From an uncultured Planctomycetaceae bacterium (GTDB taxonomy: Bacteria > Planctomycetota > Planctomycetia > Planctomycetales > Planctomycetaceae): DNA of 64,000 bases. The position numbers and the translations under genes are program-made. Positions 11,075 to 55,431 of this stretch are shown piece after piece. The stretch covers positions 864,001-928,000 of the forward strand of contig CAWFAK010000007.1 in NCBI GenBank assembly GCA_963813715.1, given 5' to 3'. Below the pieces are notes generated by a model, which saw only the letters and a program-made list of their open reading frames with translations, had not been told where the DNA came from and ran no database searches. Position 1 is the stretch's first letter; the number at the start of each line of letters is the position of its first letter.

Positions 11075-11850
11075 TGACCAGCTGGATTCTCATCAGGCGC
11101 TGGTTCAAATGGTCGACGCCCAACCTACGCCGATGGGATCGGTGAATCAACGATTTGGCCTCTCCCCAACGTCTTCCAGTGCTCTCGCAACATACCATCA
11201 GAGACCGAGGAAAGCTTCGATTGATGCTTTCGGCGTCAGGTGGATCAGGCCTGGTCGGCGGCGCGTTCCGCGAGACTCAAACATTTTCTGGGAACCCCGG
11301 GCACCCGAAACTCATCCGTTTTTCGCCACGCTGTTCCGCGTCCCGGATTCTCATACGTTTTGGCGGAATCCGGCCTCAGGCGGCGAGAGCGATCAAAACG
11401 CCCTGAAATCGGCGGCAGAATTCGAACGGGCCTGTTGAAAAAGGGCAAATAATTGTCGTTGTTCAGCCTCACCGACTTGATCGGCCACACCCCAAGCCGC
11501 TCCTGGCGTAGAACTTCGGCCTCCCCGAATCGGCCTTCGACGGGTTCGCTCCTGATCGATTGGCCTGGAAGCGATCGCGTCTCCTCATTGTCGTCGGGTG
11601 GCCCACTATCAGATCGCACGTCACAAAGTCGTCGGCCCCCGGAAGAGTGGGGGATCCGATTCAGCCTGAGGGGCCATTCAATCGTCGAGCCGCAGGCAAA
11701 TCGATCCAGTTTGTTTTGCTTTTTCGTATCCATGTTGTGACGAGGTTGCCCTGCTGAGCGAATCACAGAGTGTAGTGAACTCAGCGATGGGAATGGGCGA
11801 TCGCGATGCAGGCTCGACTCGCACCATGTAAGCCCGATGAACTGGCGACT

Positions 11851-12378
11851 ATGGACCCGCCGGCCTCAGACCACGAACACTTTCTTTCGCTTTTGGAATC
11901 CCACCAGCGGCCATTATTCAAGGTCTGTTGGACGTACGGCAGGACGTCGCACGATCGAGATGACTTGTTTCAGGAAATCGTCGGGCGGCTGTGGACATCG
12001 TTTGCGAAGTACGACCGCAGTCGCAAGTTTTCGACATGGATGTATCGCGTGGCGCTGAACGTCGCAATCGACTTTCGAAGAAGGCAGCAGCGATGGGGAA
12101 GGGAGACGAGCCTCGACGAAGGCGGGGCGGCAGTTCCAGCCGAGGCACCTGACGACGCGACGAAGCGACAACAATTGCGTGAGCTGCGAGAGCTGTTGGA
12201 GCGACAACGCGATGCGGACCGCGCCATTCTGCTCTTGTACCTGGAAGGACACTCGTACCGCGAAATCGGCGAGGTCCTCGGCACGAGTGAATCGAACGTC
12301 GGCACGCGTCTGAACCGCCTGAAGACTTCGCTTCGGCAATCCGTTCAAGGGCCGTCAGACGAAAAGGGAGACGTGTAG
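11851..12378 (+). CDS. ECF RNA polymerase sigma factor
   Basis: Region 2 DDLFQEI...FSTWMYRVALN; region 4 LEGHSYREIGEVLGTSESNVGTRLNRLK. Confidence 0.93.
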   Translation: MDPPASDHEHFLSLLESHQRPLFKVCWTYGRTSHDRDDLFQEIVGRLWTSFAKYDRSRKFSTWMYRVALNVAIDFRRRQQRWGRETSLDEGGAAVPAEAPDDATKRQQLRELRELLERQRDADRAILLLYLEGHSYREIGEVLGTSESNVGTRLNRLKTSLRQSVQGPSDEKGDV

Positions 12379-12380
12379 CG

Positions 12381-13082
12381 ATGCAGTTCGAAGAATTGCA
12401 GCAAGAATGGCAAAGGTTCGATCAGAAGCTCGATCGTTCGCTGGCCCTGCAGGCCGAAGTTGTGCGCCGAGTCGTGATGCAGCCAGCGCGCCGTCGCGTC
12501 AATCGCTTCGCGATTTGGCCCGTGATTGACCTCGTGTTCTGTGCAGTTGGGCTCCTGCTCGCAGGGTCCTCTCTTGGCAAGCATTGGCGCAACTGGCAGG
12601 TTGCGGCGCCTGCAATCGTAGTCATGATCAGCGCCATCGCACTGGCGGCCAGCAGCATACTTCAGCTCCAGCGTGTGGCTGAGTTGGATTGGTGTGGACC
12701 GGTCGCCGAACTCCAGACTGCTCTGGAACGACTTCGGACCACGAAGATTCGGCAGTTCAAATGGATCATCCTGTTTTCGCCGTTCGTCGGCTTCTGCGCA
12801 TTAATGGTGGGACTGCACTGGCTCTTCGAGTGGTTGTCGGATGACCGCGTCCACATCCTCGACAAGCTCGATCCGCGGTGGATCGTCGCCAACTATGTCT
12901 TTGGTCTGCTGTTCGTGCCGCTGGGCTACTTTGTCGCCCGTCGTCTCGCAGAGCGGTGTCGTCGTCAGCGATGGTGGCAAACGGCACTCGATGATATCTC
13001 CGGAAAGAGCCTCAAGTCGGCGGCTCGCGATGTGGATCGTTGGGCGAGCTTGCAGGACGAGGCATCTAATCACAGCGTCTGA
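12381..13082 (+). CDS. Multi-TM membrane protein, probable anti-sigma partner
   Basis: Starts 2 nt after the ECF gene; MQFEELQQEWQ N-terminus and four hydrophobic segments. Confidence 0.75.
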   Translation: MQFEELQQEWQRFDQKLDRSLALQAEVVRRVVMQPARRRVNRFAIWPVIDLVFCAVGLLLAGSSLGKHWRNWQVAAPAIVVMISAIALAASSILQLQRVAELDWCGPVAELQTALERLRTTKIRQFKWIILFSPFVGFCALMVGLHWLFEWLSDDRVHILDKLDPRWIVANYVFGLLFVPLGYFVARRLAERCRRQRWWQTALDDISGKSLKSAARDVDRWASLQDEASNHSV

Positions 13083-13398
13083 GACATGACGGCATCCGGC
13101 TTGATCGCCGACGCTCGCCGGTGAAGTAGAGCCGGAGGGTCTGCCCCGCGATTTTGCGATTACGGGACCGGTCTAGCATTTTCTGCGTCAGTTTCAGAGA
13201 TCTGCCAACGCTCTCGAAGTGATCCGCCCGCGGCGTCAACAGTGGGTCGATCGAGACATCGAGCGCGCCCGTAGCGCGTTTAACGTCACAGAATCTCATA
13301 CCTTTTCGCGGACACGCCAAAAAAGGACCCTTTTCCCGAATTACCGACGGGCCATTCACTGCACCCCAGACTATCCCAACCTTGGCTCTATCGCGCCC

Positions 13399-13542
13399 GC
13401 TAAATAATTGCCATTTTGGTGTTATAATAAGGTGAGGGGGAGGCGTAGCCTTCGACGTCCCGACCCGACGCCAGCCCGACCAGGCCACGCCCGTGTCTAA
13501 GCGGGTGAAAACGGCTAAATAATTGCCAAAAGCGTGGTATAG
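13399..13542 (+). promoter_or_regulatory. Two tandem extended -10 promoters, each preceded by the same 15-bp box
   Basis: GCTAAATAATTGCCA at 13399-13413 and 13513-13527, each followed 9 nt later by TATAAT (13423) or TATAGT (13537) with a TGn extension. Confidence 0.55.
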
Positions 13543-13592
13543 TGACATGAGTGAAGTAGTGTAAGAGTTGAAATAGAAAAAGTTGTTGAGTC

Positions 13593-13666: not shown

Positions 13667-13870
13667 ATGACCGTCGCCTTGGCCAGTTGCTCGCTTGTAT
13701 TGATGGGGACCGTGGCCCTCCTGGTCCGCGAGGTCCGGCTTCGCCGGGCCCTCCAGCAACTCTTGTTTCGCCTTTTGACCCTGTGGAGACGTCTGCATGC
13801 AAAAGACGGCCCGCTGTCCGCCGATCAGGAGGGCCCTGATAATCCTCGGCTTGGTCGCGATCGGCTGTAG
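13667..13870 (+). CDS. Small single-TM hypothetical protein
   Basis: GGAG RBS; hydrophobic N-terminus, then REVRLRRALQQLLFRLL. Confidence 0.6.
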   Translation: MTVALASCSLVLMGTVALLVREVRLRRALQQLLFRLLTLWRRLHAKDGPLSADQEGPDNPRLGRDRL

Positions 13871-14375
13871 CTCCAGCGACGACCGCCTAGTCGACCTGTC
13901 CCAGAAAAGCGCCGATCGGCAGGCGGATCAAAACCGGCTGGTCGAAGCCAACAACCGGCAGGTTCTTGAAGCCACCAAAAAACTGGTGGAAGCGGACGCG
14001 AAGGGCCGCACCGAAAACCTCGAAATGCATCGCCAGATCGAGGTCGAACGCTCGGGCGTCAACGAGCAGCGAAATGCCCTTGAACTGGAGCGGCGACAAA
14101 TCGCCGCCCAGCGCAACCGTGACCCGATCATCGCGGAATCGATTCAGGTGACTGCCGGATTGATCGCCGCCGTTCTGCCTCTGCTCGTCTGCCTGTTTCT
14201 GCTTCGCGGACTCTTCGACAAGCCGGATCAGGATGCGCTAGCGGAGCTCCTGATCGAGGACCTTGTCTCTCGCGAGCCGCTGCTAGGCCATCCTGCTCGC
14301 CTCAGGCTGCCAGAGGCCGATAGCAATCCTCGATTGCCGGCTGCGCCAACGCCGGAAGGCTCCTCCATCACCTAG
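13797..14375 (+). CDS. Putative lipoprotein with coiled coil and C-terminal TM helix
   Basis: Lipobox-like LVAIGC; Q/E/R-rich coil; TM segment IAAVLPLLVCLFLL. Confidence 0.7.
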   Translation: MQKTARCPPIRRALIILGLVAIGCSSSDDRLVDLSQKSADRQADQNRLVEANNRQVLEATKKLVEADAKGRTENLEMHRQIEVERSGVNEQRNALELERRQIAAQRNRDPIIAESIQVTAGLIAAVLPLLVCLFLLRGLFDKPDQDALAELLIEDLVSREPLLGHPARLRLPEADSNPRLPAAPTPEGSSIT

Positions 14376-14480
14376 AGCCACCTGCGGCGCCCTTGGCCAA
14401 CCACCTTCCTCAATTACCGCCCCCGTCGTGAAATCACCCTCTTTGCACTCAATGTCGCTCGGCGACAAGGAGTACCAACC

Positions 14481-14765
14481 ATGAACCAATCCGAAATTGA
14501 GCGCGCGGTGGCTCGGGCAACCGGCGAGTCTCGCCGCTTCGTCAAGCAATTCGGCTTCAGCTTGATCTCTGGCGAGCCGGAGCCCGACAACGATCCGGCC
14601 CTGGCCATCGATTGCCCCGGCTGCGGCGCCGTCTTTGATCCGTCAAACGGCTTGAATCTCGGCAGGGGACTCGAGTGTCCCCGGTGTGACGCCATTTATC
14701 CGGTCTCCCTCGACGAGTTCTACGTCGTTGACGGTCCGCGCCAGCCACTCGTCGCCTGTGCCTGA
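14481..14765 (+). CDS. Small zinc-ribbon protein
   Basis: AGGAG RBS; helical N-terminus (MNQSEIERAVARATGES); CPGC...CPRC. Confidence 0.75.
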   Translation: MNQSEIERAVARATGESRRFVKQFGFSLISGEPEPDNDPALAIDCPGCGAVFDPSNGLNLGRGLECPRCDAIYPVSLDEFYVVDGPRQPLVACA

Positions 14766-14811
14766 CGAAATCTTGTGACGATCCCATTCCCAGAATTCAA
14801 GGACCACCTTT

Positions 14812-15030
14812 ATGAAGTTGTTTTTCATCAACAATGACGGCGGCGGCTTTGCCGACACGATCGAAGTGTCCGATGGCACGTCGATCGCCCAACTCTTCGA
14901 ACAACGGGTGCCGCACGGCAAACCGGCGGACTACTTGATCCGCGTCAATCGACAGCCGGTGGCGGCCGGCCAAGCCCTGCGAGAAGGTGATCGGGTGAGC
15001 GTCACACCCACGAAGATCGAGGGCGCGTAA
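14812..15030 (+). CDS. Ubiquitin-like beta-grasp protein (ThiS/MoaD superfamily), C-terminus -KIEGA
   Basis: 72 aa with a beta-grasp pattern: [13 protein letters not shown]...LIRVNRQ...[17 protein letters not shown]. Confidence 0.85.
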
Positions 15031-15055
15031 GCAACAGAGTCCGTGGCAATTAACT

Positions 15056-15094
15056 GAGGGGCGCTGGCTCGCTTGCCGGCGCCCCTCGCTTTTT
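15056..15094 (+). terminator. Hairpin/terminator after the Ubl gene
   Basis: GAGGGGCGCTGGC-tcgctt-GCCGGCGCCCCTC followed by gcTTTTT. Confidence 0.65.
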
Positions 15095-15122
15095 GTTCCG
15101 CACCATGCCAGAAGGGAGAACC

Positions 15123-16181
15123 ATGCACGCCCAGCACAAAGTGCTGTTGCGGACAGCGGAACGGATTTCGGCGCACGTGCACCGACTCAGAGCAACTCCG
15201 CTCTCGGTTGAGCTGCCGGAGGAAGACTGGAACTACGCCAAGCGCTTGCTGCGGCAGCTCGACGTCTGCCAGGAACGTGACTGGACGGAAGCCGCCGCGC
15301 TCTTGGCGGACCGCTTGCAGCGGGCGTTGGAGCGTTGTTGCGAGCGATTTCAAGAAATCAACCGCCAAGTCTCGGGACACGGCTCACCGCTGTTCGTTCA
15401 GAGCACCCGCGACAGTTTCGATGACCTTGTGTCACTGGCGGCTGAATTCGAGGCGGTATCGGTCGACGGGCCGAACCATACGGTTTCCGTCACCACCGAT
15501 TCGATCGTCCTCGAAGAGATCAACCTCGGGCCCTTTGAGATCCGGCTGCAGTGGGACCGGATCGGCGACCGGCGTCCTTACAGCGTCATCGCCTTGAACC
15601 CCAACCCGGCCGGGGAGTCGAGCGAAACCACTCACCCGCACGTCAAGGGTGAGCAGCTCTGCGAAGGCGATGGCCGCATGGCCATCGATCGGGCCCTCCG
15701 CGCCGGCCGGCTGCTCGACTTCTTTCAACTCGTGAGCCGGATACTCGAGACCTACAACCCGGGCAGCGCCTACGTCGCGCTCTCGGAATGGAACGGCAGC
15801 CCCTGCAGTGATTGCGGCGACGTCGCCGCCGAGGAGGGCCAATACACCTGCGACCGCTGTGGCGACCGGCTCTGCCGCGACTGTCTCAGCTCCTGCTGCC
15901 GTTGCGAGGCGCTCTGCTGCCAGTCTTGCACCAACTTCTGCCGCCAGTGCGAGGAATCGATTTGCTCGGGCTGCCAACAGACCTGCACGCACTGCGATCG
16001 GTCGCTTTGCTGCTCATGTCTTTCAGAAACCGGCCTCTGTGAAGAGTGCCAGGAGGAACACGATGCACACAATGTCGATGAGGATGAAGACCAATGCCCG
16101 CCCCTGGAAGCCGAGACGCCTGCTCCGTCGGCCCCGGGAGATGCGGACCCGCAGTCGGCGACGGCCGCGGTTACGGTTTAG
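15123..16181 (+). CDS. E2/UBC-like conjugating enzyme fused to a C-terminal multi-CxxC zinc-finger region
   Basis: GPFEIRLQW...[11 protein letters not shown]...[21 protein letters not shown] parallels the UBC consensus (HPNV...IC...LLxxPNPxS). Ten CxxC motifs follow. GGAG RBS before ATG 15123. Confidence 0.7.
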
Positions 16182-16803
16182 CCCCACGGCCTGGGCCAAG
16201 CTGCTGTTCGTCCGCGACCGCGGCTCAACCGAGGTTGGCGGGTTCGGCATCACGTCGGCAGACGATCTGCTGTACGTCGAAGACATGCGCTTAGTGAAAC
16301 AAGTCTGTACGTCGGTTTCTGTGGTCTTCGACGACGCGGCTGTCGCCGAGTTCTTTGACGAGCAGAATGATGCCGCGCGCAAGCCCGAACAGTTTGGACG
16401 GATTTGGATCCACACCCATCCGGGGCAGTCGCCTGAGCCGAGCCCTGTCGACGAAGAGACGTTTGCCCGAGTCTTCGGGCCATGCGATTGGGCGGTAATG
16501 TTCATCCTCGCCCGCGAGGGTGCGGATTATTGTCGCCTGCGGTTCCGGGCCGGCCCGGGAGGCGAGTGGGTGATTCCAGTGGGCATCGATTTTCAAGGCC
16601 GTTTCGCGGGCTCAAATCGCGACGCTTGGGCCGCAGAGTACGAGGCGACCGTCTGCCAACCGGAAGTCCGGCTCACCGGTCTGCCCTCGGCGCAAATCGG
16701 AGCGAACTCGGCAGCGCTGACCGAGACGGATGACCTGTTCGACAGCTTTTGGGTAACCTTCGACTGGGAAAGGGGTCTCGATCTCCATGAACACACGCTT
16801 TGA
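16063..16803 (+). CDS. JAB/JAMM (Mov34/MPN) metallo-isopeptidase
   Basis: AGGAGG RBS before ATG 16063; Glu in TEVGG and [14 protein letters not shown] = HxH-x7-S-x2-D. Confidence 0.88.
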
Positions 16804-17481
16804 GCGACAACAGGATCTCGTTCCGCAAGACCGCCTTGCCGCCCTGACGGCCACTGTTATCGGAGTGGGCGCGATTGGCAGGCAGGTGGCCTTACAGCTG
16901 GCGGCGATTGGAATCCCCCGCCTGCAACTCGTCGACTTCGACCAGGTCGAGCAACCAACGTCACGAGTCAAGGCTACTGGCAGGCGGATGTCGGTCAGCT
17001 CAAGGTCGACGCCACCCGCGCGGCCGTCGAGGCCATCGATCCGACGATCGCGGTTGAAAATTGTGCTGACCGATTCCGCTCCAAACAGTCCGTGGGCGAG
17101 GCGGTCTTTTGCTGCGTCGATAGCATTTCGGCCCGAGCCGCAATCTGGCGGGCAGTTGAGCACCGCTGCGAATTCTGGGCCGACGGTCGAATGCTGGGAG
17201 AGGTGATTCGCGTGCTCGTTGCCTCAGACGGCGCCACCGGCGATGAATACGCGTCGACGCTCTTTCCGCAGGCCGAGGCCCAGCTCGGACAATGTACGTC
17301 CCACAGCACGATTTACGTCGCCTCAATCGCCGCAGGGCTGATGGTCCACCAGTTCAGCCGCTGGTTGCGGAATTTGGCGATTGACGACGACGCCACCATT
17401 AATCTCTTGGCGGGCGAGTGGGCTCAATGCTCGCAGAGCCATGACCTGACGATTCGTCCGCGCCGCGCACCAGACTCATAA
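16787..17481 (+). CDS. E1-like ThiF/MoeB-family adenylyltransferase (frameshift near 16952)
   Basis: VIGVGAIG and DFDQVE, then after the frameshift TNVTSQGY...[17 protein letters not shown] and candidate catalytic Cys in GQCTSHST. Confidence 0.88.
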
Positions 17482-20209: not shown

Positions 20210-21342
20210 ATGCAAGAAGACAGAGACATCGTCGGCAACCGAGTGCGGATCTACCCGCGCGGAATCAAACGAATCTACTGCGCCGACTTCTGGCACGAGG
20301 GCAAACACTGCCGAGTCTCGTTGAAGACGCGAAACCGCAAGGTGGCCGTCGAACGCGCGGTTGCTTTGGCAAACGCGTTGCAGGAAGGAACCTATCAAAG
20401 CCGAGGGCCGGAAGTGACCATTGCCGTAGCGAAAGACTCATTCCTCGCCTTCGTGGCCATGGAAGGTCGGGCTTTAAAGACTCGCACGCGCTACGCGACC
20501 ACGTTGCGAACGTTTCAGACCTTTTGTGAATCGCGGAAAATCATGCGGCTTTCAAAGGTGACGCCTCTCGTCGTGGACGCGTACCGGGCCGAGCGAAGAA
20601 AAACTTGCAGTCCATCAACGGTCTTTATCGAGACGGTGGTCGCCAAGCAGCTCTTACGCTGGTGTCATAGCCGGCGACTGATCGCGGTGAATCCCTTGGC
20701 CAGCTACAGGGTCCCAAAGGTCATTTCCAAGAAGCGGTCCTCACCGAGCCTTGAAGACGTGCAAGCGATCCTTTCGGGCTCACGTCCCCGTCTTCAGCGA
20801 ATCTTGGGTACTCTGGCTTTCGCAGGTCTTCGGATCGGGGAATTGCGTCAGTTACGCGTCGAAGACGTCGATCTTGCCGATGGTTGGATCCGTGTCGAAT
20901 CACGTGAAGGTGCGGAAACCAAAACGCATCGCTCGAGAAAGATTCCGATTCACCCAGTCCTTCGCGAGATCCTCAAGGAGCAGAGTCGACAGGGCATTGG
21001 TTCTTCAAGACCGAGCGGGGTGGGGACACTCGTGAAGGTAGTCACCCAATCGCGCCAAACAAGATCAACAAGCAGTTCCAGAAAGTCGCCGCAGCAATTG
21101 GCCTGCCTGTGGGCCTCAAGGACAACGGGTACACCATCCACTCACTACGGCACTTTTTCGAGACCTTCACCGTCAACAGCCGAATTCCACAGCCTGTTGT
21201 CGATACTTGGATGGGTCATCAAGGCGTCCGCTCGATGGGCAAGGTGTATTACGAGCTCGCTGATGCTGAGTCCCAACGATTCATGCGGGAAGTGTCGTTC
21301 TCGCTCAAGACCACCGCGTGCGCCTCAGGCACGCAAGTCTAA
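20210..21342 (+). CDS. Tyrosine recombinase/integrase (frameshift near 20993)
   Basis: Arm-binding N-terminus (RVSLKTRNRKVA), AGLRIGEL and TKTHRSR. In the second frame: HSLRHFF, WMGHQ and catalytic Tyr in KVYY. Confidence 0.9.
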
Positions 21343-22004
21343 CCTCAAAACAGAAGGGTTTCCGCCAATGTGCAATCAACTTCGCCGACGCCATCCAATG
21401 CTCAGTCAGCAGATCGCGGCTGGCCTGGCGCTGTTCGCGATGACCGTCATAATGTCCGGCGTCGCAAGTCGGACCGCCGCAGCCGCCCTGGACAAATCCT
21501 GGACAACCGGGGGGCACGCAAAAAACCAAGGCTCGCAAGGTGTTCGACGTTCAGCACTTACGATCATCGGCTCTTTGCGGGCTGAGAGTAGTGAAAAAGG
21601 ATCCCCACCACCAGCAGAGATCCTTTTTTCGTCCCCGGCGGGGATCTTCCCCACCAGCCAAAGCGGGTCCAATCACGATCCGTGTCCCGTCCCGCGAGGG
21701 CGCTGGGTCAACTACTTATTGAAAGAATGTGTCCCGACCCACCGGACAGTCTCTTTTCGCCTCCCGCCCGACGAGACGCACGCCGACCGTCTCCGGCGCG
21801 GGGCCAATACTCGACGCTACCACGCGTAATTCAATGCGCGGAGCCCGAGTTTCTACGCCCGCATAAACAATAAACAAGTTGAGAAATTGCTGGCCGATCG
21901 CTGGCAAGCACGGATCCGAGACATCACGAAGGCGGGTCCGTGAGAGAATGAAATACGCAGTCGAGCCGCAATACAATTGAGTCGCCTATCCAGGAGCAAC
22001 GAAC

Positions 22005-32750: not shown

Positions 32751-32824
<74 letters not shown>

Positions 32825-50717: not shown

Positions 50718-50794
50718 TGGTGCTTGGTGCGGGAGTCGAACCCGCGACAGCCAGACCTTAAATCTGGTGCTCTTCCGACTGAGCTAACCGAAGT
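50718..50794 (-). tRNA. tRNA-Leu(TAA)-like, short variable loop, CCA encoded
   Basis: CCAGA-ttTAAgg-TCTGG; GCGGG-TTCGACT-CCCGC; bulged acceptor stem. Confidence 0.7.
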
Positions 50795-50899
50795 TGGTGA
50801 CGGCCGTTTTAGAACCCATGTCCGGAACACACGAACCTGATCCACGAGACCGCGTGCCAGTCTCGGGAGGCCCTTGCGCCGCTGGACGGGCCGACACCA
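50795..50899 (-). ncRNA. Candidate ~105-nt structured RNA (Y-RNA-like closed stem)
   Basis: 5' TGGTGTCGGCC pairs with 3' GGCCGTCACCA; internal hairpin CGAGAC/GTCTCG. Confidence 0.4.
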
Positions 50900-50918
50900 C
50901 CGAAGCAAGCCTGAAAAG

Positions 50919-50990
50919 AAACGCCGGTGGGAGTCGAACCCACTACAAGCCGCTTTGCAGGCGGCCGCCCTACCGTCTGGCTCCGGCGTT
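50919..50990 (-). tRNA. tRNA-Cys(GCA)
   Basis: GCCGC-ctGCAaa-GCGGC; U73. Confidence 0.88.
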
Positions 50991-51015
50991 AGATGCGTTT
51001 CAAAGATCTCAAAAA

Positions 51016-51087
51016 TGTCCTCGCCAGGATTCGGACCTGGTCCTCGACCTTCGCAGAGTCGCGTGCGATCCACCACACTCCGAGGAC
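51016..51087 (-). tRNA. tRNA-Arg(GCG)
   Basis: CGACT-ctGCGaa-GGTCG; variant T-loop TCCGAAT. Confidence 0.82.
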
Positions 51088-51108
51088 GTTGCGCACTTGT
51101 CGTGCGAG

Positions 51109-51179
51109 TACCCCGCCGAGGATTCGAACCTCGTCTGGCAGCTTCGAACACTGCCGTGCGTCCACCACACTCGCAGGGC
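51109..51179 (-). tRNA. tRNA-Arg(TCG)
   Basis: GCAGT-gtTCGaa-GCTGC; T-loop TTCGAAT. Confidence 0.85.
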
Positions 51180-51259
51180 AATTCGTAGAACTCGCATTGA
51201 AGAAAACGAAGCACCCGACGGCTCACGCCGTCGGCTCGCCGGGTCTCCTCGCGCTTTCA

Positions 51260-51331
51260 TGTCTCGACCTGGATTCGAACCAGGACCAGGACCTTCGGAG
51301 GGTCCGATGCGATCCGTTACACCATCGAGAC
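51260..51331 (-). tRNA. tRNA-Arg(CCG)
   Basis: GGACC-ctCCGaa-GGTCC. Confidence 0.9.
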
Positions 51332-51362
51332 GCTGTCGCCAAAATCTTCCAAAAGAACGCAG

Positions 51363-51436
51363 AGCCGACGGCTGGATTCGCACCAGCATCATCCTGTTTA
51401 CAAGACAGGCGCCTTTCTGTTTCGAGCCACGTCGGC
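51363..51436 (-). tRNA. tRNA-Thr(TGT)
   Basis: CCTGT-ctTGTaa-ACAGG; variant T-loop TGCGAAT. Confidence 0.85.
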
Positions 51437-51454
51437 ACTCAAACGATCGATCAA

Positions 51455-51526
51455 GCACGAACGCGAGGATTTGAACCCCGTCGGGCGGTTTTGGAGGCCG
51501 CCGGCTCTCCCAGGAGCACGCTCGTG
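51455..51526 (-). tRNA. tRNA-Trp(CCA)
   Basis: GCGGC-ctCCAaa-ACCGC; T-loop TTCAAAT. Confidence 0.78.
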
Positions 51527-51555
51527 TAAAGCCACGACCGGCGCGGACGGTTCCG

Positions 51556-51627
51556 GGAGGGCGAAGCTCCTGCTGAGCCAGCATTCTTCTGCAAGCAAAG
51601 CAGAGGTCGGCGGGAGCCTCGCCCTCC
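51556..51627. repeat. REP-like inverted repeat
   Basis: GGAGGGCGAAGCTCCTGCTGAGCC ... GGTCGGCGGGAGCCTCGCCCTCC. Confidence 0.75.
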
Positions 51628-51635
51628 AGGAACAA

Positions 51636-52232
51636 TCAACTCTCCAGCGGGACGTTCCAATACGCCTCGCTGATGAACTTCGACCAGCTCATCATCCGCT
51701 CGCTCGTCCGTGCGTAGAGCGGCTTCCAGGCCGGTCGCACCGGCTCCCGATGCAGCTTCATCCGTGCCTGCGCCGGCGTGCGGTCGGCCTTGTGCTTGTT
51801 GCAGTCGATGCACGCCAGCACGCAGTTCTCCCACGTCGAGACGCCCCCTTGCGAACGCGGCACAACGTGGTCGATCGTCAGCTCGGCTCCGCCCGGCTGA
51901 CGGCCGCAGTACTGGCACGTCCAATGATCGCGCTTGTGGATGTTCCGCCGGCTGAAGGCGACCGCGGCCGTCGGCAGCCGGTTGTACTCCGCCAGCACGA
52001 TCACCTCCGGCACGCGCAGCGTCGACCGCACGCACTGGATGAAGTCGTCACCGTCGGCCGGCCGCAGCCGCGACCAGTCGGCCCACGTGTAGAGCCGAAA
52101 ATCGCGCGGATCGACGACGCGGGCCGCCTCGTTCCACAACAGCACCAGCGCCCGGGCGACCGTCGCCACGTTCACGGGCTGCCAGTTGCGATTGAGGACC
52201 AGCGCCGGCCGCTGGAGCGTTCGCGTCGTCAT
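51636..52232 (-). CDS. HNH endonuclease (McrA-like, zinc-binding) embedded in the tRNA array
   Basis: LVLNRNWQP; FSRRNIHKRDHWTCQYCG...TIDHVVPRSQGG..TWENCVLACIDCNKHK; GGAGG RBS. Confidence 0.93.
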   Translation of the reverse strand: MTTRTLQRPALVLNRNWQPVNVATVARALVLLWNEAARVVDPRDFRLYTWADWSRLRPADGDDFIQCVRSTLRVPEVIVLAEYNRLPTAAVAFSRRNIHKRDHWTCQYCGRQPGGAELTIDHVVPRSQGGVSTWENCVLACIDCNKHKADRTPAQARMKLHREPVRPAWKPLYARTSERMMSWSKFISEAYWNVPLES

Positions 52233-52256
52233 GATTTTGTTCCTCCGCGAAAACAG

Positions 52257-52330
52257 GGTGCCCAGGGGGAGTTGAACCCACCCCTTCGACGTTCACAGCG
52301 TCGCGTGCAAACCGTTACACCACGGGCACC
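52257..52330 (-). tRNA. tRNA-His(GTG)
   Basis: CGACG-ctGTGaa-CGTCG; G-1:C73. Confidence 0.9.
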
Positions 52331-52419
52331 ATCCAATGGACCGTCCAAGGGACGGCTGGTGCCTCCGGCAGGGAAGTGCCCGCTGTCCTTCTGTCACACT
52401 TGTTGTTTGATAGGCAATT

Positions 52420-52491
52420 TGCCTCGACCAGGATTTGAACCCAGAACTCCTTGTTAGAAGCAAGGAATGATTTCCGTTTCACCATCGAGGC
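52420..52491 (-). tRNA. tRNA-Arg(TCT)
   Basis: CCTTG-ctTCTaa-CAAGG. Confidence 0.9.
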
Positions 52492-52507
52492 CCGTGGCTC
52501 GATCGAG

Positions 52508-52594
52508 CGGAAGGCAAGGGAATTGAACCCTCATCCGCACTCGGCGGAACCGCCTTAGCAGAGCGGCCCGGCCAACCGTATCCGGCTACCTTCC
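52508..52594 (-). tRNA. tRNA-Ser(GCT)
   Basis: CCGCT-ctGCTaa-GGCGG; long variable arm; G73. Confidence 0.88.
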
Positions 52595-52663
52595 GTATTT
52601 TTGTCCTTCTTGTTTCTGTACTGCCTTATTTCTGTACCTGCGGGCACCGTCCGAGGCTTCGAA

Positions 52664-52734
52664 TGGACCGCCGGGGAATCGAACCCCGATTTCCTGGTTG
52701 CAAGCCAGGCGTCTTCCCGTTTGACGAGCAGCCC
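52664..52734 (-). tRNA. tRNA-Ala(TGC)
   Basis: CCTGG-ctTGCaa-CCAGG; G3:U70. Confidence 0.92.
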
Positions 52735-52743
52735 GGGTTGGAG

Positions 52744-52850
52744 AGTCCAAAGTCCAAGGTCCAACGTCCAAAGTCGGAAAGACAAAAAGACCGCGGCCGC
52801 CGTCGTCTCTTGTTTTCTGACCTTGCTTTGGACTTTGGACTTCTGGACCT
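52744..52850. repeat. Inverted heptamer tandem repeats
   Basis: (nGTCCAA)x4, then (TTTGGAC)x2-3 in the opposite orientation. Confidence 0.75.
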
Positions 52851-52866
52851 TCGCCATTAGGCGAAT

Positions 52867-52942
52867 TGACCGAGGTGGGAGTCGAACCCACAAAGTCACG
52901 GCGCTCTCGACACCGCCGCTTTGCCGGTTTGCGTACTCGGCC
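52867..52942 (-). tRNA. tRNA-Leu(GAG)-like, short variable region, C33
   Basis: CGGTG-tcGAGag-CGCCG; D-arm nearly identical to array tRNA-Leu(CAA); A73. Confidence 0.72.
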
Positions 52943-52972
52943 GTTTTTGCACTATCTCCTTCGTTCGATCAG

Positions 52973-53041
52973 TAGCAGGTCCGGGTGTCGCACCCGGCCG
53001 GTGGAGCTTATGAGGCCCCACTGGGCACTGGCCCCCCTGCG
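52973..53041 (-). tRNA. tRNA(CAT), Met (possibly initiator) or Ile2, with a minimal D-arm
   Basis: GGGGC-ctCATaa-GCTCC; C1/T72 mismatch; D-arm GGGC-cagt-GCCC; T-loop TGCGACA. Confidence 0.65.
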
Positions 53042-53089
53042 TCATCGCGTCAAATAACGCTGCGTGATTCGACGATTCGTTGTTTGAAG

Positions 53090-53172
53090 TGACCAAGGGG
53101 AGAGTCGAACTCCCACGCCCGCGGGGCACGACATTCTGAGTGTCGCGTGTCTGCCAGTTCCACCACTTGGTC
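53090..53172 (-). tRNA. tRNA-Leu(CAG)
   Basis: CGACA-ctCAGaa-TGTCG; long variable arm. Confidence 0.92.
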
Positions 53173-53237
53173 GTTGTCGCATGTTCTCGGCGAGCGTGGT
53201 CGGTTCGTCGATTCGGTTCTGATTGCCTCGATGAAAG

Positions 53238-53310
53238 CGACCCGTGCGGGAGTCGAACCCGCCTTTGCGGCTTGAGGGGCCGCCGTCCTATGCCAATAGA
53301 CGAACGGGCC
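53238..53310 (-). tRNA. tRNA-Glu(CTC), C33
   Basis: GCGGC-ccCTCaa-GCCGC. Confidence 0.87.
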
Positions 53311-53340
53311 GAATTGTTCGTCGCATTTCCAATTGACGAG

Positions 53341-53422
53341 TGCGTCGGGCAGGAGTCGAACCTGCAATGCCATCAGGCGGGTGGTTTACAGTCACTGGGG
53401 CACGCCAATGCCCAGCCGACGC
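53341..53422 (-). tRNA. tRNA-Tyr(GTA)
   Basis: Loop ctGTAaa; long variable arm; T-loop TTCGACT. Confidence 0.85.
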
Positions 53423-53440
53423 GTATTTGTTCTCTCGAAG

Positions 53441-53515
53441 TGGCACGAGTGGGAGTCGAACCCACAGACCACGAAGGTTTGAGCTTCGCCGCTTTGCCAG
53501 TTTGCGTACCGTGCC
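53441..53515 (-). tRNA. tRNA-Leu(CAA)-like, short variable region
   Basis: CGAAG-ctCAAac-CTTCG; variable region TGGTCT; A73. Confidence 0.8.
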
Positions 53516-53534
53516 CTCTCGCGATTTCTCGAAG

Positions 53535-53609
53535 CGTCTCCGATGGGATTCGAACCCACGATCTCCACCGTGACAGGGTGGCGGGGACGGCCAACTCCCC
53601 TACGAAGAC
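53535..53609 (-). tRNA. tRNA-Asp(GTC)
   Basis: CCACC-ctGTCac-GGTGG; G73. Confidence 0.92.
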
Positions 53610-53687
53610 CGGCGTTGCCGGCTTGTGCCTCCGGCAGGCAGACGAAGGACCGCAGGGTTATGCTTGCGGTTCGCCTCAATTCTTCAG

Positions 53688-53759
53688 TAATCCCGGATGG
53701 ACTCGAACCATCGTTGCCTGGGTGTAGGCCAGGAGTCGTTGCCGCTGGACCACGGGATC
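53688..53759 (-). tRNA. tRNA-Val(TAC), C33
   Basis: CCTGG-ccTACac-CCAGG. Confidence 0.87.
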
Positions 53760-53833
53760 TTTTTGTTCTGAACGCGTTGTGCGAATTGGACGGCTCCCGA
53801 TGGTCGCCTTTCTTCGTGTAGTGCGATTAGCAG

Positions 53834-53919
53834 CGGAAGCCGTGGGACTCGAACCCACAATTCGCGCACGGCGAACACCTGTTTTCGGGACAGGCCCCTC
53901 ATCCGGCCGGATGACTTCC
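53834..53919 (-). tRNA. tRNA-Ser(CGA), C33
   Basis: CCTGT-ccCGAaa-ACAGG; long variable arm; G73. Confidence 0.85.
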
Positions 53920-53945
53920 GTGAGATACGAACTTAGCTTTTCCAG

Positions 53946-54021
53946 TTGCGGGGGCTGGAATCGAACCAGCGGCCTCCAGGTTCAGAGCCTGGCGTCACGT
54001 ACCAGCAGCAACTGCCCCGCA
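53946..54021 (-). tRNA. tRNA-Gln(CTG)
   Basis: CCAGG-ctCTGaa-CCTGG; U1-A72. Confidence 0.87.
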
Positions 54022-54066
54022 GCGTGTTTTGCCCTCTTATTAACGAGCGTCCGTCGGTGAAAACTG

Positions 54067-54137
54067 TTCGGGGAGAAGGATTCGAACCTTCATCACCTGC
54101 TTCAAAGGCAGGCAGCCTACCGTTAGCCGATCCCCGA
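54067..54137 (-). tRNA. tRNA-Gln(TTG)
   Basis: CCTGC-ctTTGaa-GCAGG; U1-A72. Confidence 0.9.
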
Positions 54138-54166
54138 GCACGCGCGCTTTCAAATTCCATCCACAA

Positions 54167-54238
54167 AGTGCCCTGCGGGAGTTGAACCCGCCTCGCCGGC
54201 TTGGAAGGCCGGCACCTTTGCCGCTCGGCCAAGGGCAC
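54167..54238 (-). tRNA. tRNA-Gly(TCC)
   Basis: CCGGC-ctTCCaa-GCCGG; U73. Confidence 0.92.
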
Positions 54239-54258
54239 AGTCGTTTCAATTTCTCAGG

Positions 54259-54345
54259 CGGAAGCCGTGGGACTCGAACCCACAAGCGAGTGGTTGCTCG
54301 CCTCCTGTTTTCAAGACAGGACCCTCATCCGGCCGGATGGCTTCC
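54259..54345 (-). tRNA. tRNA-Ser(TGA)
   Basis: CCTGT-ctTGAaa-ACAGG; long variable arm. Confidence 0.87.
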
Positions 54346-54372
54346 GTGAGACAACAAATTTTCGACAGACAG

Positions 54373-54447
54373 CTGCGGCGGCAGGAATCGAACCTGCGTC
54401 GGGATGATTAACAGTCACCTGCCCGTACCAACACGGGCCCCACCGCA
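54373..54447 (-). tRNA. tRNA-Asn(GTT)
   Basis: GGTGA-ctGTTaa-TCATC; G73. Confidence 0.87.
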
Positions 54448-54509
54448 ATGCGACTTCTTCTTCCTCCGGAGAACCGGCGGGCTAACACCCGCGCGCTCGC
54501 CTGCGAAAG

Positions 54510-54580
54510 AGCACCCAGCGGGAGTCGAACCCGCACTTCCGCCCTGGCAAGGCAGCAGGCTGCCGCTACATCATGGGTGC
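54510..54580 (-). tRNA. tRNA-Gly(GCC)
   Basis: CTGCC-ttGCCag-GGCGG; U73. Confidence 0.88.
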
Positions 54581-54712
54581 GTTTTTTTGTCCTGGTCGAG
54601 TTGTCAAAGAACCATGCACACGGAACGGTCGTCCGCGCAAATTCAAACGCGACGGCCGAAGGGCCGTGCCGAATAACCACGGCGGCCAAAGGGGCCGCGA
54701 AAACTAACGCAG

Positions 54713-54784
54713 AGCACAGGGTGGGACTCGAACCCACGTTTCCGCATTACGGGTGCGGAGTCCTCGCCGCTGAACGACCCGTGC
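54713..54784 (-). tRNA. tRNA-Thr(CGT), C33
   Basis: CCGCA-ccCGTaa-TGCGG. Confidence 0.87.
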
Positions 54785-54831
54785 TTGCCGTTGTCGAACT
54801 GTCGCCGTCAAACTCGTCGTCATCTCATCAG

Positions 54832-54904
54832 TGGGACCAGAGGGACTTGAACCCTCACCGACCTGGTTAAGAGCCAGGCATGCTGCCGCTAACACCTTGA
54901 TCCC
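54832..54904 (-). tRNA. tRNA-Lys(CTT)
   Basis: CCTGG-ctCTTaa-CCAGG. Confidence 0.9.
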
Positions 54905-54920
54905 GTGTGCGTTTCCGAAG

Positions 54921-54992
54921 TGGGGCCGGAGGGATTTGAACCCACGCCTCGCAGATTAAAAGTCTGCTGTGCTACCGTTACACCACGACCCC
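54921..54992 (-). tRNA. tRNA-Lys(TTT)
   Basis: GCAGA-ctTTTaa-TCTGC. Confidence 0.92.
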
Positions 54993-55066
54993 GCGTGTGG
55001 CCGTGGCTCTGTTTCTTCCGGTACCGTCGGGTCACTTTTTTATCTCCGAAAAAAAGCCCAAAAGAG

Positions 55067-55137
55067 TCGCTCGGGGTGGAGTCGAACCACCGTTTTCGCC
55101 TTATCAGAGCGACGTACTTCCGTTGCACTACCGAGCG
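55067..55137 (-). tRNA. tRNA-Ile(GAT)
   Basis: TCGCT-ctGATaa-GGCGA. Confidence 0.88.
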
Positions 55138-55159
55138 TGCTGCTCCTGCATTTCTTCAG

Positions 55160-55231
55160 TCGGGATGGCTGGAATCGAACCAGCTTCCACGTGTTCCCGA
55201 AACACGCGGGCGCCCGGAGCCCTTCATCCCG
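55160..55231 (-). tRNA. tRNA-Pro(CGG)
   Basis: CGTGT-ttCGGga-ACACG; C1-G72, A73. Confidence 0.87.
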
Positions 55232-55251
55232 TTCTTGTTTGTCTTCTCGAA

Positions 55252-55323
55252 TGACTCGTGCGGGATTTGAACCCGCGTCGCCGCCTTGAAAGGGCAGAAT
55301 CCTCACCGTTAGACGAACGAGCC
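55252..55323 (-). tRNA. tRNA-Glu(TTC)
   Basis: CTGCC-ctTTCaa-GGCGG. Confidence 0.9.
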
Positions 55324-55359
55324 TTTTCTTCGTGCATCAGCGCGCAAGCTGAGCGCAAG

Positions 55360-55431
55360 TGGGTCGGGAGGCGCTCGAATCCTCGTCCCCTGGTTTTCAG
55401 CCAGGCGCTAAACCGTCTCAGCTACCGACCC
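55360..55431 (-). tRNA. tRNA-Phe(GAA), first tRNA of the array
   Basis: CCTGG-ctGAAaa-CCAGG. Confidence 0.88.

Follow-up and report, generated by a model that had tools for sequence, protein, structure and literature searches.

A candidate ubiquitin-like conjugation system with a reduced E1 and a zinc-finger-bearing E2-like protein on small integrative elements of Planctomycetota

Results

Organisation of the locus

We analysed a 64,000-nucleotide stretch of DNA (hereafter the window) from an uncultured Planctomycetaceae bacterium (GenBank assembly GCA_963813715.1, contig CAWFAK010000007.1, positions 864,001 to 928,000 of the forward strand), in which six co-oriented genes occupy positions 13797-17481 of the + strand. 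The last four encode a ubiquitin-like (Ubl) tag, an E2-like conjugating protein, a JAMM/JAB metallopeptidase and a minimal E1-type activating enzyme, the last three genes overlapping at their ends. Taken with its relatives in other genomes, this cassette is likely to be a functional-type Ubl conjugation system of a previously undescribed family, carried on small planctomycete integrative elements and with a role that is likely conflict-related. The genes and features of the locus are as follows.

13797-14375, + strand: lipoprotein-like accessory gene, an open reading frame (ORF) of 192 aa with a signal peptide and GC lipobox, a coiled coil and a C-terminal hydrophobic helix
14481-14765, + strand: small Zn-ribbon protein, 94 aa, with a conserved N-terminal motif of about 26 aa and, in the window's clade, a CPGC...CPRC zinc ribbon
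14812-15030, + strand: Ubl tag, 72 aa, β-grasp, ending ...KIEGA with a stop codon directly after
15055-15097, + strand: GC-rich hairpin (14 pairs) and T-run, terminator- or attenuator-like, between the Ubl and E2 genes
15123-16181, + strand: E2-like protein, 352 aa, four regions; the ORF is open from 15093
16141-16803, + strand: JAMM/JAB metallopeptidase, about 220 aa, within the ORF 15808-16803 and overlapping the 3' end of the E2 gene
16787-17481, + strand: minimal ThiF-type E1 with one adenylation domain, about 215-230 aa, frameshifted as assembled; candidate catalytic Cys at 17293-17295
20210-21342, + strand: tyrosine recombinase (integrase), in two frames as assembled; Phage_integrase match at E = 3.2e-8 and XerA/XerD-like matches

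An initial annotation of this DNA, made from its letters and a list of ORFs, had described co-oriented, partly overlapping genes for a Ubl, an E2, a JAB and an E1, and all four were found at those places on the + strand. It had also called the operon complete; the four genes are indeed present, in an order and orientation kept in relatives, but the E1 lies in two frames as assembled, which had gone unnoticed. The E2 start is probably the ATG at 15123, because most homologues are 352 aa long. For the JAB the start is uncertain, from 16063 to 16141, the latter being the last ATG ahead of the conserved block, and the E1 and JAB genes share 17 nt at their junction. These overlaps of stop and start codons suggest a single transcription unit. 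The integrase lies 2.7 kb downstream of the four-gene operon.

The four core genes are conserved across Planctomycetota

Homologues of the window proteins were sought by phmmer in 80 related loci, where the misses fell mostly at loci cut by contig ends. The numbers of loci with a match were:

Ubl: 76 of 80
E2-like protein: 80 of 80
JAB: 75 of 80
E1, N-terminal half: 66 of 80
E1, C-terminal half: 64 of 80
Zn-ribbon protein: 38 of 80
Lipoprotein: 30 of 80
Integrase: 14 of 80
Extracytoplasmic function (ECF) sigma factor or membrane protein: 0 of 80

The order Ubl-E2-JAB-E1 on one strand is kept across the related loci (64-80 of 80), a synteny far beyond chance, and the core cassette is thus conserved in the neighbourhood survey across Planctomycetota. 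The initial annotation had further included upstream membrane, lipoprotein and Zn-ribbon genes in the architecture. The latter two recur as listed, but the membrane gene does not: the ECF sigma and membrane genes (11806-13082) lie outside the unit, in a separate segment duplicated on another contig. No thiamine, molybdopterin, tRNA-thiolation or cysteine-synthesis gene was found among the conserved neighbours of the related loci, in agreement with the earlier remark that sulfur-transfer partners are missing near the cassette, nor do these homologous clusters sit with cofactor-biosynthesis genes.

A protein collection clustered at 90% holds 167 relatives of the E2-like protein at E ≤ 1e-3, nearly all about 350 aa long, hypothetical or unnamed and with no Pfam domain; all organism names given among them are Planctomycetota. 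When a profile of the E2 core (residues 100-227, alignment A2) was searched against 1.84 billion representatives at the 50% identity level, it matched 2,235 at E ≤ 1e-3, 1,457 at E ≤ 1e-10 and 753 at E ≤ 1e-30. The best 150 of these matches are all close family members, and about 780 further matches are weak and might include links to known E2s. Among GTDB species genomes 135 relatives were confirmed, 78 of the 80 fetched loci carry Planctomycetota names, and several genomes hold three to four copies. The distribution is patchy: among 401 genomes sampled from the phylum 15 have the E2 core, as do 12 of 20 from the window's own family, with one to six matches per genome; both counts are lower bounds, ten candidates having been scored per genome.

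The Ubl tag ends in a near-invariant Gly-Ala

The 72-aa protein has a weak Pfam ThiS match (E = 0.0074), and its reading as a β-grasp Ubl is upheld by structure prediction. The AlphaFold2 model (predicted local distance difference test, pLDDT, 93.3; predicted template-modelling score, pTM, 0.81) has the order β-β-α-β-β and a free C-terminal tail, and a Foldseek search of the PDB matched it to RnfH, ubiquitin, SUMO, Caldiarchaeum Ub, TtuB, SAMP1 and MoaD at template-modelling (TM) scores of 0.6-0.73. Across 76 homologues the mean column identity is 74% (alignment A3), and the conserved part ends ...KIEGA or in a near variant, the exceptions being one Gly-Gly and one Ala-Ala. A stop codon follows Gly-Ala directly in 14 of the 76; the other 62 have a non-conserved tail there, from 1 to about 50 residues long.

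A near-invariant Gly-Ala with variable tails behind it suggests that the Ubl is matured by proteolysis. The parts of the Bil report that deal with BilA describe homologues with a conserved Gly followed by at most nine variable residues, and an E. aridi BilA that ends Gly97-Ala98, its terminal Ala blocking adenylation until the JAB BilC removes it (10.1101/2023.09.26.559546). This analogy suggests that the JAB of the cassette exposes Gly71. The mature end may instead be Ala72, which stays in play because Ala72 is invariant and 14 genes stop right after it.

By fixed criteria, a hairpin with a T-run occurs within 150 nt past the Gly-Ala codons in 32 of 69 loci, as against 0-2 of 59-69 at eight control offsets in the same loci, and the stem sequences vary between clades. 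The hairpin may serve as an attenuator that sets expression of the tag above that of the enzymes.

The E2-like protein combines a UBC-like core with a Cys-rich tail

Four regions were distinguished in the 352-aa protein, all encoded on the + strand, its core resembling the ubiquitin-conjugating (UBC) fold.

Residues 1-90: N-terminal three-helix domain in the model
Residues ~95-225: UBC-like core, with HPH at 171-173 (15633-15641) and Cys180 (15660-15662)
Residues 228-309 (15804-16049): Cys-rich tail of about eleven CxxC pairs at 7-8-residue spacing
Past the tail: disordered C-terminus in the model

Residues H171, P172, H173 and C180 are invariant both in 32 and in 60 homologues, as is G182. 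Canonical E2 enzymes have the spacing HPN-x7-C, to which H-P-H-x6-C is close, and by its sequence the protein has a catalytic-type Cys shortly after an HPN-like motif. Two UBC-type motifs had been proposed initially: HPHV-x4-LC stands, with its invariant residues, whereas LETYNPGS is a family-specific conserved block and no more than a putative UBC motif. In the structural model (pLDDT 84.4, pTM 0.63), three helices (3-87) and a further helix (95-108) are followed by a four-strand meander (111-157), the HPH loop and Cys180; beyond these come two helices (182-209), short strands that carry the CxxC pairs (225-300), a helix (307-324) and the disordered end. Among the 48 Foldseek matches listed for this model against the PDB, 38 are E2 entries (UbcH5, Rad6, UbcH7, UBE2A), with E-values of 0.06-0.3, probabilities of at most 0.89 and target-normalised TM scores of 0.27-0.52 over 118-189 columns; the better-superposed of them reach about 0.45-0.5 over some 130-140 columns. 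The remaining ten are PHD or LIM fingers and large complexes.

Structure matches, motifs and genomic context together make it very likely that the 352-aa protein is a UBC-like E2, its predicted UBC fold being supported at moderate strength, and as judged from sequence this E2 belongs to a new family. The window protein matches nothing in Pfam, NCBIfam or PADLOC, and scans of it and its homologues against these libraries and PHROGs gave no E2 assignment. Searches of the window's own genome for Prok-E2_B and Prok-E2_D gave nothing; members of these families are scarce in the phylum (2 and 1 of 201 genomes, respectively), too few for a profile. The Cys-rich tail has weak sequence matches to MID1 B-box1 (E = 0.007), TRAF3 RING, ZZ and FYVE domains and structural matches to tandem PHD and LIM fingers, and these RING/B-box/PHD-like resemblances point to a chain of treble-clef or cross-brace zinc fingers.

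One family member (P0121, 733 aa) consists of two complete E2-like units arranged head to tail in tandem, and both units have a zinc-finger tail of their own. Outside the window's clade, many homologues end in V(Q/H)P..LGQA.VPA after an acidic linker (last ~15 columns of alignment A1), an ending that the window protein does not have.

The JAB keeps its metal site and the E1 is reduced

The JAB matches the Pfam family Prok-JAB below cut-off (E = 0.0017; scores of 18.6-23.8 for the window protein and its homologues against a cut-off of 25) and PADLOC JAB models at E-values of 3.5e-4 or higher. Its JAMM site, comprising an upstream Glu and HTHPG..PS..D, is at least 90% conserved in 75 loci, which bears out the HxH-x7-S-x2-D peptidase motif recognised at the outset.

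The first half of the E1 matches Pfam ThiF at E = 9.9e-9, and intact homologues do so at E = 4.7e-27. Their consensus (62 loci) contains RF.RQ, a GxGxxG loop, DFD, a Lys, an FCCVDS..R block and a Cys in G.CT..TIY. The E1 had been described as having a candidate catalytic Cys and lacking the MoeB-type CxxC pairs; conservation of the Cys in G.CT is 90% or more across the 62 loci and the consensus has no CxxC pairs, so both points hold. An intact homologue stayed below the cut-off of every named NCBIfam model:

ThiF: 77.5 bits, cut-off 159
MoeB: 67.1 bits, cut-off 266
UbaA: 45.5 bits, cut-off 450
PRTRC_ThiF (TIGR03736): 33.9 bits, cut-off 144.75

With a conserved cassette, an E2 that Pfam, NCBIfam and PADLOC do not recognise and an E1 below all named cut-offs, the proposal of a distinct, uncharacterised Ubl conjugation system finds support.

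The E1 frameshift is very probably an assembly artefact

As assembled, the E1 is read in two frames, 16787 to ~16951 and ~16948 to 17481: the first 55 residues end ...VDFDQVE and the remainder continues in the +2 frame. Relative to a metagenome contig of about 89% identity (run X3), whose extra G restores the frame, one nucleotide is missing after 16953. Both halves lie in a single ORF in 62 homologous loci (median 215 aa), and the genome's own second copy has an intact E1 in one ORF (C15:26190-26828). A programmed frameshift was ruled out, the homologues being read through in one frame. The integrase is frameshifted as well, with its C-terminal part in another frame (21031-21300). In the same genome rpoB is found in four pieces with different open frames and rpoC across at least three frames (C9:452772-460787), and the two copies of a 2-kb duplicate carrying the ECF sigma and membrane protein genes (window 11298-13328 and C5:4287-6314) are 97.5% identical with 17 gaps. 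The assembly is 82.6% complete in 18 contigs.

Given that rpoB and rpoC are split too, and that the 62 homologues and the second copy read through, we regard the E1 frameshift as a probable assembly error; in all, the E1 and integrase frameshifts are very probably artefacts, reflecting neither decay nor programmed shifting. Any frameshift or 'pseudogene' in this genome calls for read-level confirmation. Contigs of an RNA run (X12) match parts of the operon at 88-100% identity, and we do not take them as a sign of transcription in this strain.

The cassette is probably carried by small integrative elements

Clustering of all ORFs of the fetched loci revealed three layouts. Layout A comprises a serine recombinase, unknowns, DUF1257, DUF2997, an AAA+ ATPase, an unknown of about 500 aa, the small N-motif protein and the four core genes. 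In layout B a serine recombinase, the lipoprotein and the small protein precede the core. Layout C, that of the window's clade (clean homologue L001), has the lipoprotein, the small protein, the core, about 2 kb of unknowns, an excisionase-like HTH_17 gene and a tyrosine integrase. The ATPase of layout A matches Pfam AAA (E = 1.8e-26) and, over its full length, phrog_8638 (E = 2.6e-84), a phage family of unknown function; it is CDC48/PAN-like and IetA-like below cut-offs. Of 49 loci whose upstream sequence is long enough, about 21 have it ahead of the cassette together with DUF1257 and DUF2997. The trio stands at L070:1941-5038 and at about 20 further loci (L058, L068, L069 and L042, for example).

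Recombinases were found in the fetched flanks of 33 of the 80 loci (21 serine, 16 tyrosine, 4 with both). ARAGORN, run on 46 loci, placed a tRNA gene in 11, all of them tRNA-Ser; ten stand beside the integrase among the 16 tyrosine-integrase loci, and the scan of 28 serine-recombinase or AAA loci detected none. In L001 the operon is followed by two unknowns, the excisionase-like HTH_17 gene, a 408-aa integrase and tRNA-Ser. Near the window's integrase neither a tRNA nor an Rfam family was detected, and flanking direct repeats of at least 16 nt that would mark element ends were found neither in L001, L002, L006 or L076 nor in the window. The genome's second copy, on contig C15, shares with the window only the block from lipoprotein to E1, where the DNA is 75.8% identical; a separate integrase follows this copy at a distance of about 4 kb. 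The carriers of the cassette in Planctomycetota are thus probably small integrative elements, either putative tRNA-Ser islands or elements with a serine recombinase, as the initial annotation had supposed in placing it on a mobile element. A phage origin was rejected, no relative having been found in 50,697 phage records or in IMG/VR viral contigs.

The two upstream genes are less widely kept. Of 66 loci with sufficient flanking sequence, 19 have a lipoprotein homologue ahead of the Ubl gene; the GC is conserved in the lipoprotein consensus, and the window's lipoprotein has no match in Pfam, NCBIfam, PADLOC or PHROG. The 94-aa protein gives below-cut-off matches to Zn_ribbon_4 (Pfam, E = 0.0014) and MJ0042 (NCBIfam, E = 0.001). 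Across 38 loci its conservation is limited to the N-terminal motif, and in 40 of 66 eligible loci an ORF carrying this motif precedes the E2 start by 300-1300 nt. An AT-rich stretch (13399-13551) ahead of the lipoprotein gene contains two 38-nt direct repeats 115 nt apart (GCTAAATAATTGCCA...), and it may be the promoter or operator region of the cassette.

Discussion

A thioester cascade of the Bil kind, drawn by analogy, is the best-supported reading of the cassette, and we infer its chemical steps as follows. The 72-aa tag would be made in excess over the enzymes, with the hairpin after its gene as attenuator. The JAB would trim the residues past the invariant Gly71(-Ala72) and later remove the tag from targets. 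The minimal E1, presumably a homodimer like ThiF, MoeB or Cap2, would adenylate the C-terminus of the tag, take the tag onto its conserved crossover-loop Cys and hand it to Cys180 of the E2-like protein, whose N-terminal helical domain and poly-zinc-finger tail would replace a ligase (E3) and select targets. The exact cleavage site, the dimerisation of the E1 and the E3-like role of the tail are likewise putative. By analogy, the role is most likely to defend against phages or competing mobile elements.

According to the literature consulted, only three families of bacterial operons akin to ubiquitination systems are worked out biochemically, namely CBASS type II, Bil and Bub (PMC11601596, PMC11601603); Bil and Type II CBASS are described there as the Ubl/E2/JAB operon families with tested function, both anti-phage (PMC11601596). 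As far as these descriptions go, Bil is the closest known system, and the cassette shares with Bil its four parts, the gene order Ubl-E2-JAB-E1 in one operon, a Ubl with a conserved Gly and a variable tail (the predicted cleavage here having its parallel in Type II BilA) and the lack of a separate E3, the Bil E2 being proposed to pick targets. It differs in its E1, which is one ThiF domain of about 215 aa with the Cys in the crossover loop, whereas the BilD E1 is described as a large IAD-AAD-CYS pseudo-dimer. Further differences are the N-terminal helical domain and ~11-CxxC tail of the E2, which no library model matches, the single 72-aa β-grasp Ubl, the Planctomycetota hosts and the putative tRNA-Ser islands or serine-recombinase elements. 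No match named Bil appeared in the NCBIfam or PADLOC scans, Bil being compared here by description and not by sequence. The cassette would thus work like Bil, yet its predicted E1 is not of the Bil type.

With CBASS Cap2/Cap3 the cassette has in common a JAB partner and an E1 chemistry of the single-domain ThiF type, PADLOC E1-E2 (Cap2) models that match the E1 up to E = 1e-16, and a local E2 active-site motif resembling the WPHV..LC block of planctomycete Cap2. It differs in its separate E2 and E1 genes, its dedicated Ubl and neighbours without a CD-NTase, and the Cap2 models cover the E1 only; it is not CBASS because there is neither a CD-NTase nor an E2-E1 fusion. The Bub (6E/DUF6527) systems, in the accounts consulted, are likewise bacterial operons of Ubl, E1 and E2 with a peptidase, but use Ser/Tyr oxyesters, a DUF6527 serine protease and fused proteins. 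Here the genes are separate, the E2 and E1 keep a conserved Cys and none of the proteins scanned against Pfam has DUF6527, so the cassette is not Bub. PRTRC is also a ThiF-type E1 cassette on mobile (conjugative) elements, and PRTRC_ThiF is the best NCBIfam match of the window's second E1 half (E = 7.5e-6), but the intact homologue is far below its cut-off and no other PRTRC model matched any protein scanned. The ThiF/MoeB-ThiS/MoaD, TtuC-TtuB and UbaA-SAMP systems pair a minimal E1 with a small β-grasp protein, some with a JAMM partner; in contrast, the cassette misses all equivalog cut-offs, lacks the C-terminal CxxC zinc site in its E1, has an E2-like partner and has no sulfur-transfer neighbours. 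As all cut-offs are missed, it is not PRTRC, ThiF, MoeB or UbaA.

Our literature searches, which took in the Bub, Ubl-diversity and Bil papers, found no description of the family; the 2009/2011 Burroughs/Iyer/Aravind surveys and paper supplements were outside their coverage, so an earlier catalogue entry is possible. Classes 6a-6e of Iyer et al. 2006 (PMC1779556) list no Planctomycetes, and the string 'Planctomyc' does not occur in PMC1779556, PMC11601603 or 10.1101/2023.09.26.559546.

Several observations weigh against a working cascade of this kind. For the E2, no Foldseek match of the model to the PDB reaches E ≤ 1e-3; an all-against-all structural search was dominated by helical hairpins on residues 19-90 and left the core uninformed; none of the 32 members of the E2 alignment matches any Pfam E2 family at E ≤ 5; and a PDB profile search gave no match at E ≤ 10 with the E2 core and, with the whole protein, matches to the Cys-rich tail alone. 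Comparison by hhalign with planctomycete Cap2 (from locus L088 of a same-family genome) gave non-significant probabilities of 0.5% (single sequence) and 0.2% (7-sequence alignment); the non-significant alignment sets ...IAL..P....THPHV...LCEG of the E2 against ...IAL..P..TWPHV...LCL of Cap2. Given these middling structural matches and the lack of a significant sequence or profile match to any E2, the 352-aa protein might be a zinc-finger adaptor or substrate, with conjugation being E2-independent as in archaeal sampylation. We consider this improbable, since 60 sequences keep HPH and Cys180 without exception, spaced nearly as in UBC proteins, E2 entries dominate the structural matches and the gene always lies between the Ubl and the JAB. 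For the E1, the consensus motif after DFD.VE reads TNVTTQGY; ThiF and MoeB presumably have SNLxRQ there, in which case Thr would replace an ATP-contacting Arg and adenylation is not certain. Alternatively, the cassette could act in sulfur transfer, or have a dual function, in the manner of the ThiS, MoaD, TtuB and SAMP systems; its E1 would then make a Ubl thiocarboxylate for cofactor or tRNA thiolation, with the 15123 protein as a zinc-binding accessory. The intact E1 does have its best NCBIfam matches in ThiF and MoeB models (up to E = 1e-21), and the Ubl model also resembles TtuB, SAMP1 and MoaD, its weak Pfam match being ThiS. We nevertheless judge this very improbable: the E1 scores are far under the cut-offs, no ThiG, ThiH, MoaE, TtuA, rhodanese or cysteine-desulfurase gene occurs among the conserved neighbours, and the E2-like partner with its invariant Cys, the variable tails after Gly-Ala and the multiple copies on integrative elements speak against it. 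Finally, the E1 frameshift could be real, as the run X2 contigs that match the window exactly end at 16925 and resume at 16998, the gap 16926-16997 spanning the site, so that a deletion is uncontradicted by independent reads. With both E1 and integrase out of frame, the window copy might then be a decaying and inactive pseudo-operon, but we think this improbable: essential genes (rpoB, rpoC) are fragmented alike in the same incomplete, 18-contig assembly, and the E1 halves retain every conserved motif save for the single missing base.

The role is open to a different challenge. PADLOC scans found no known defence gene among the conserved neighbours, and with no phage or viral relatives either, it is the analogy to Bil and CBASS that speaks for a defence role. 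The same chemistry could instead serve as the element's own tool, for control of integration or excision, maintenance or host takeover, and not for anti-phage immunity that benefits the host. The cassette forms the principal and best-conserved part of very small elements such as L001, is paired in the same form with two unrelated recombinase types, reaches up to six copies per genome and has no known defence regulators or effectors conserved beside it. Against this, the divergence of copies within a genome (75.8% DNA identity) is as compatible with diversifying immune loci as with distinct elements; the tested Ubl/E2/JAB families, Bil and Type II CBASS, are reported as anti-phage in the parts of PMC11601596 that treat them; and with no replication or transfer genes seen, the 'element' may be just a defence island. 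We therefore regard this explanation as possible but rather unlikely. A more speculative version, which we think unlikely, makes the E2 with its cross-brace zinc fingers a single-polypeptide E2/E3 in a self-contained machine, completed by the minimal E1, the Gly-Ala-ended tag and the JAB, that would be the defining cargo of the element family and that, with the AAA+ ATPase, would form an element-serving 'tag-and-unfold' pathway; if so, it would be analogous to ubiquitin-Cdc48 or Pup-Mpa.

Read as a conjugation system, the cassette would add another large family, with 2,235 representatives at the 50% identity level, to those already known. It is unusual in its reduced E1 and in an E2 that annotation models do not recognise and that carries its own RING/B-box/PHD-like zinc-finger array, and it bears on the minimal size of a thioester cascade, on target choice in E3-less systems and on why mobile elements carry ubiquitin-like machinery. 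The system goes unrecognised because annotation pipelines label the E2 'hypothetical'. Planctomycetota are often discussed for eukaryote-like traits.

Further observations

In the same-family genome that supplied the Cap2 sequence (Caulifigura coniformis according to one source), locus L088 (G156:C1:1225585-1228947) is a Type II CBASS in which a CD-NTase-like gene adjoins an E2-E1 fusion of 620 aa with Prok-E2_B and ThiF domains. Two dispersed repeats were noted in the window. One, at 21589-21770 just past the integrase, occurs over 40 times across many contigs, with ~77-100% identity between copies, and contains palindromic GGATC...GATCC units; the other, at 11300-11428, has about 15 copies at ~72-86% identity. 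On the - strand, positions 50718-55431 hold 32 tRNA genes in 4.7 kb, covering most amino acids, and two more at 32751 and 40597 bring the number in the window to 34.

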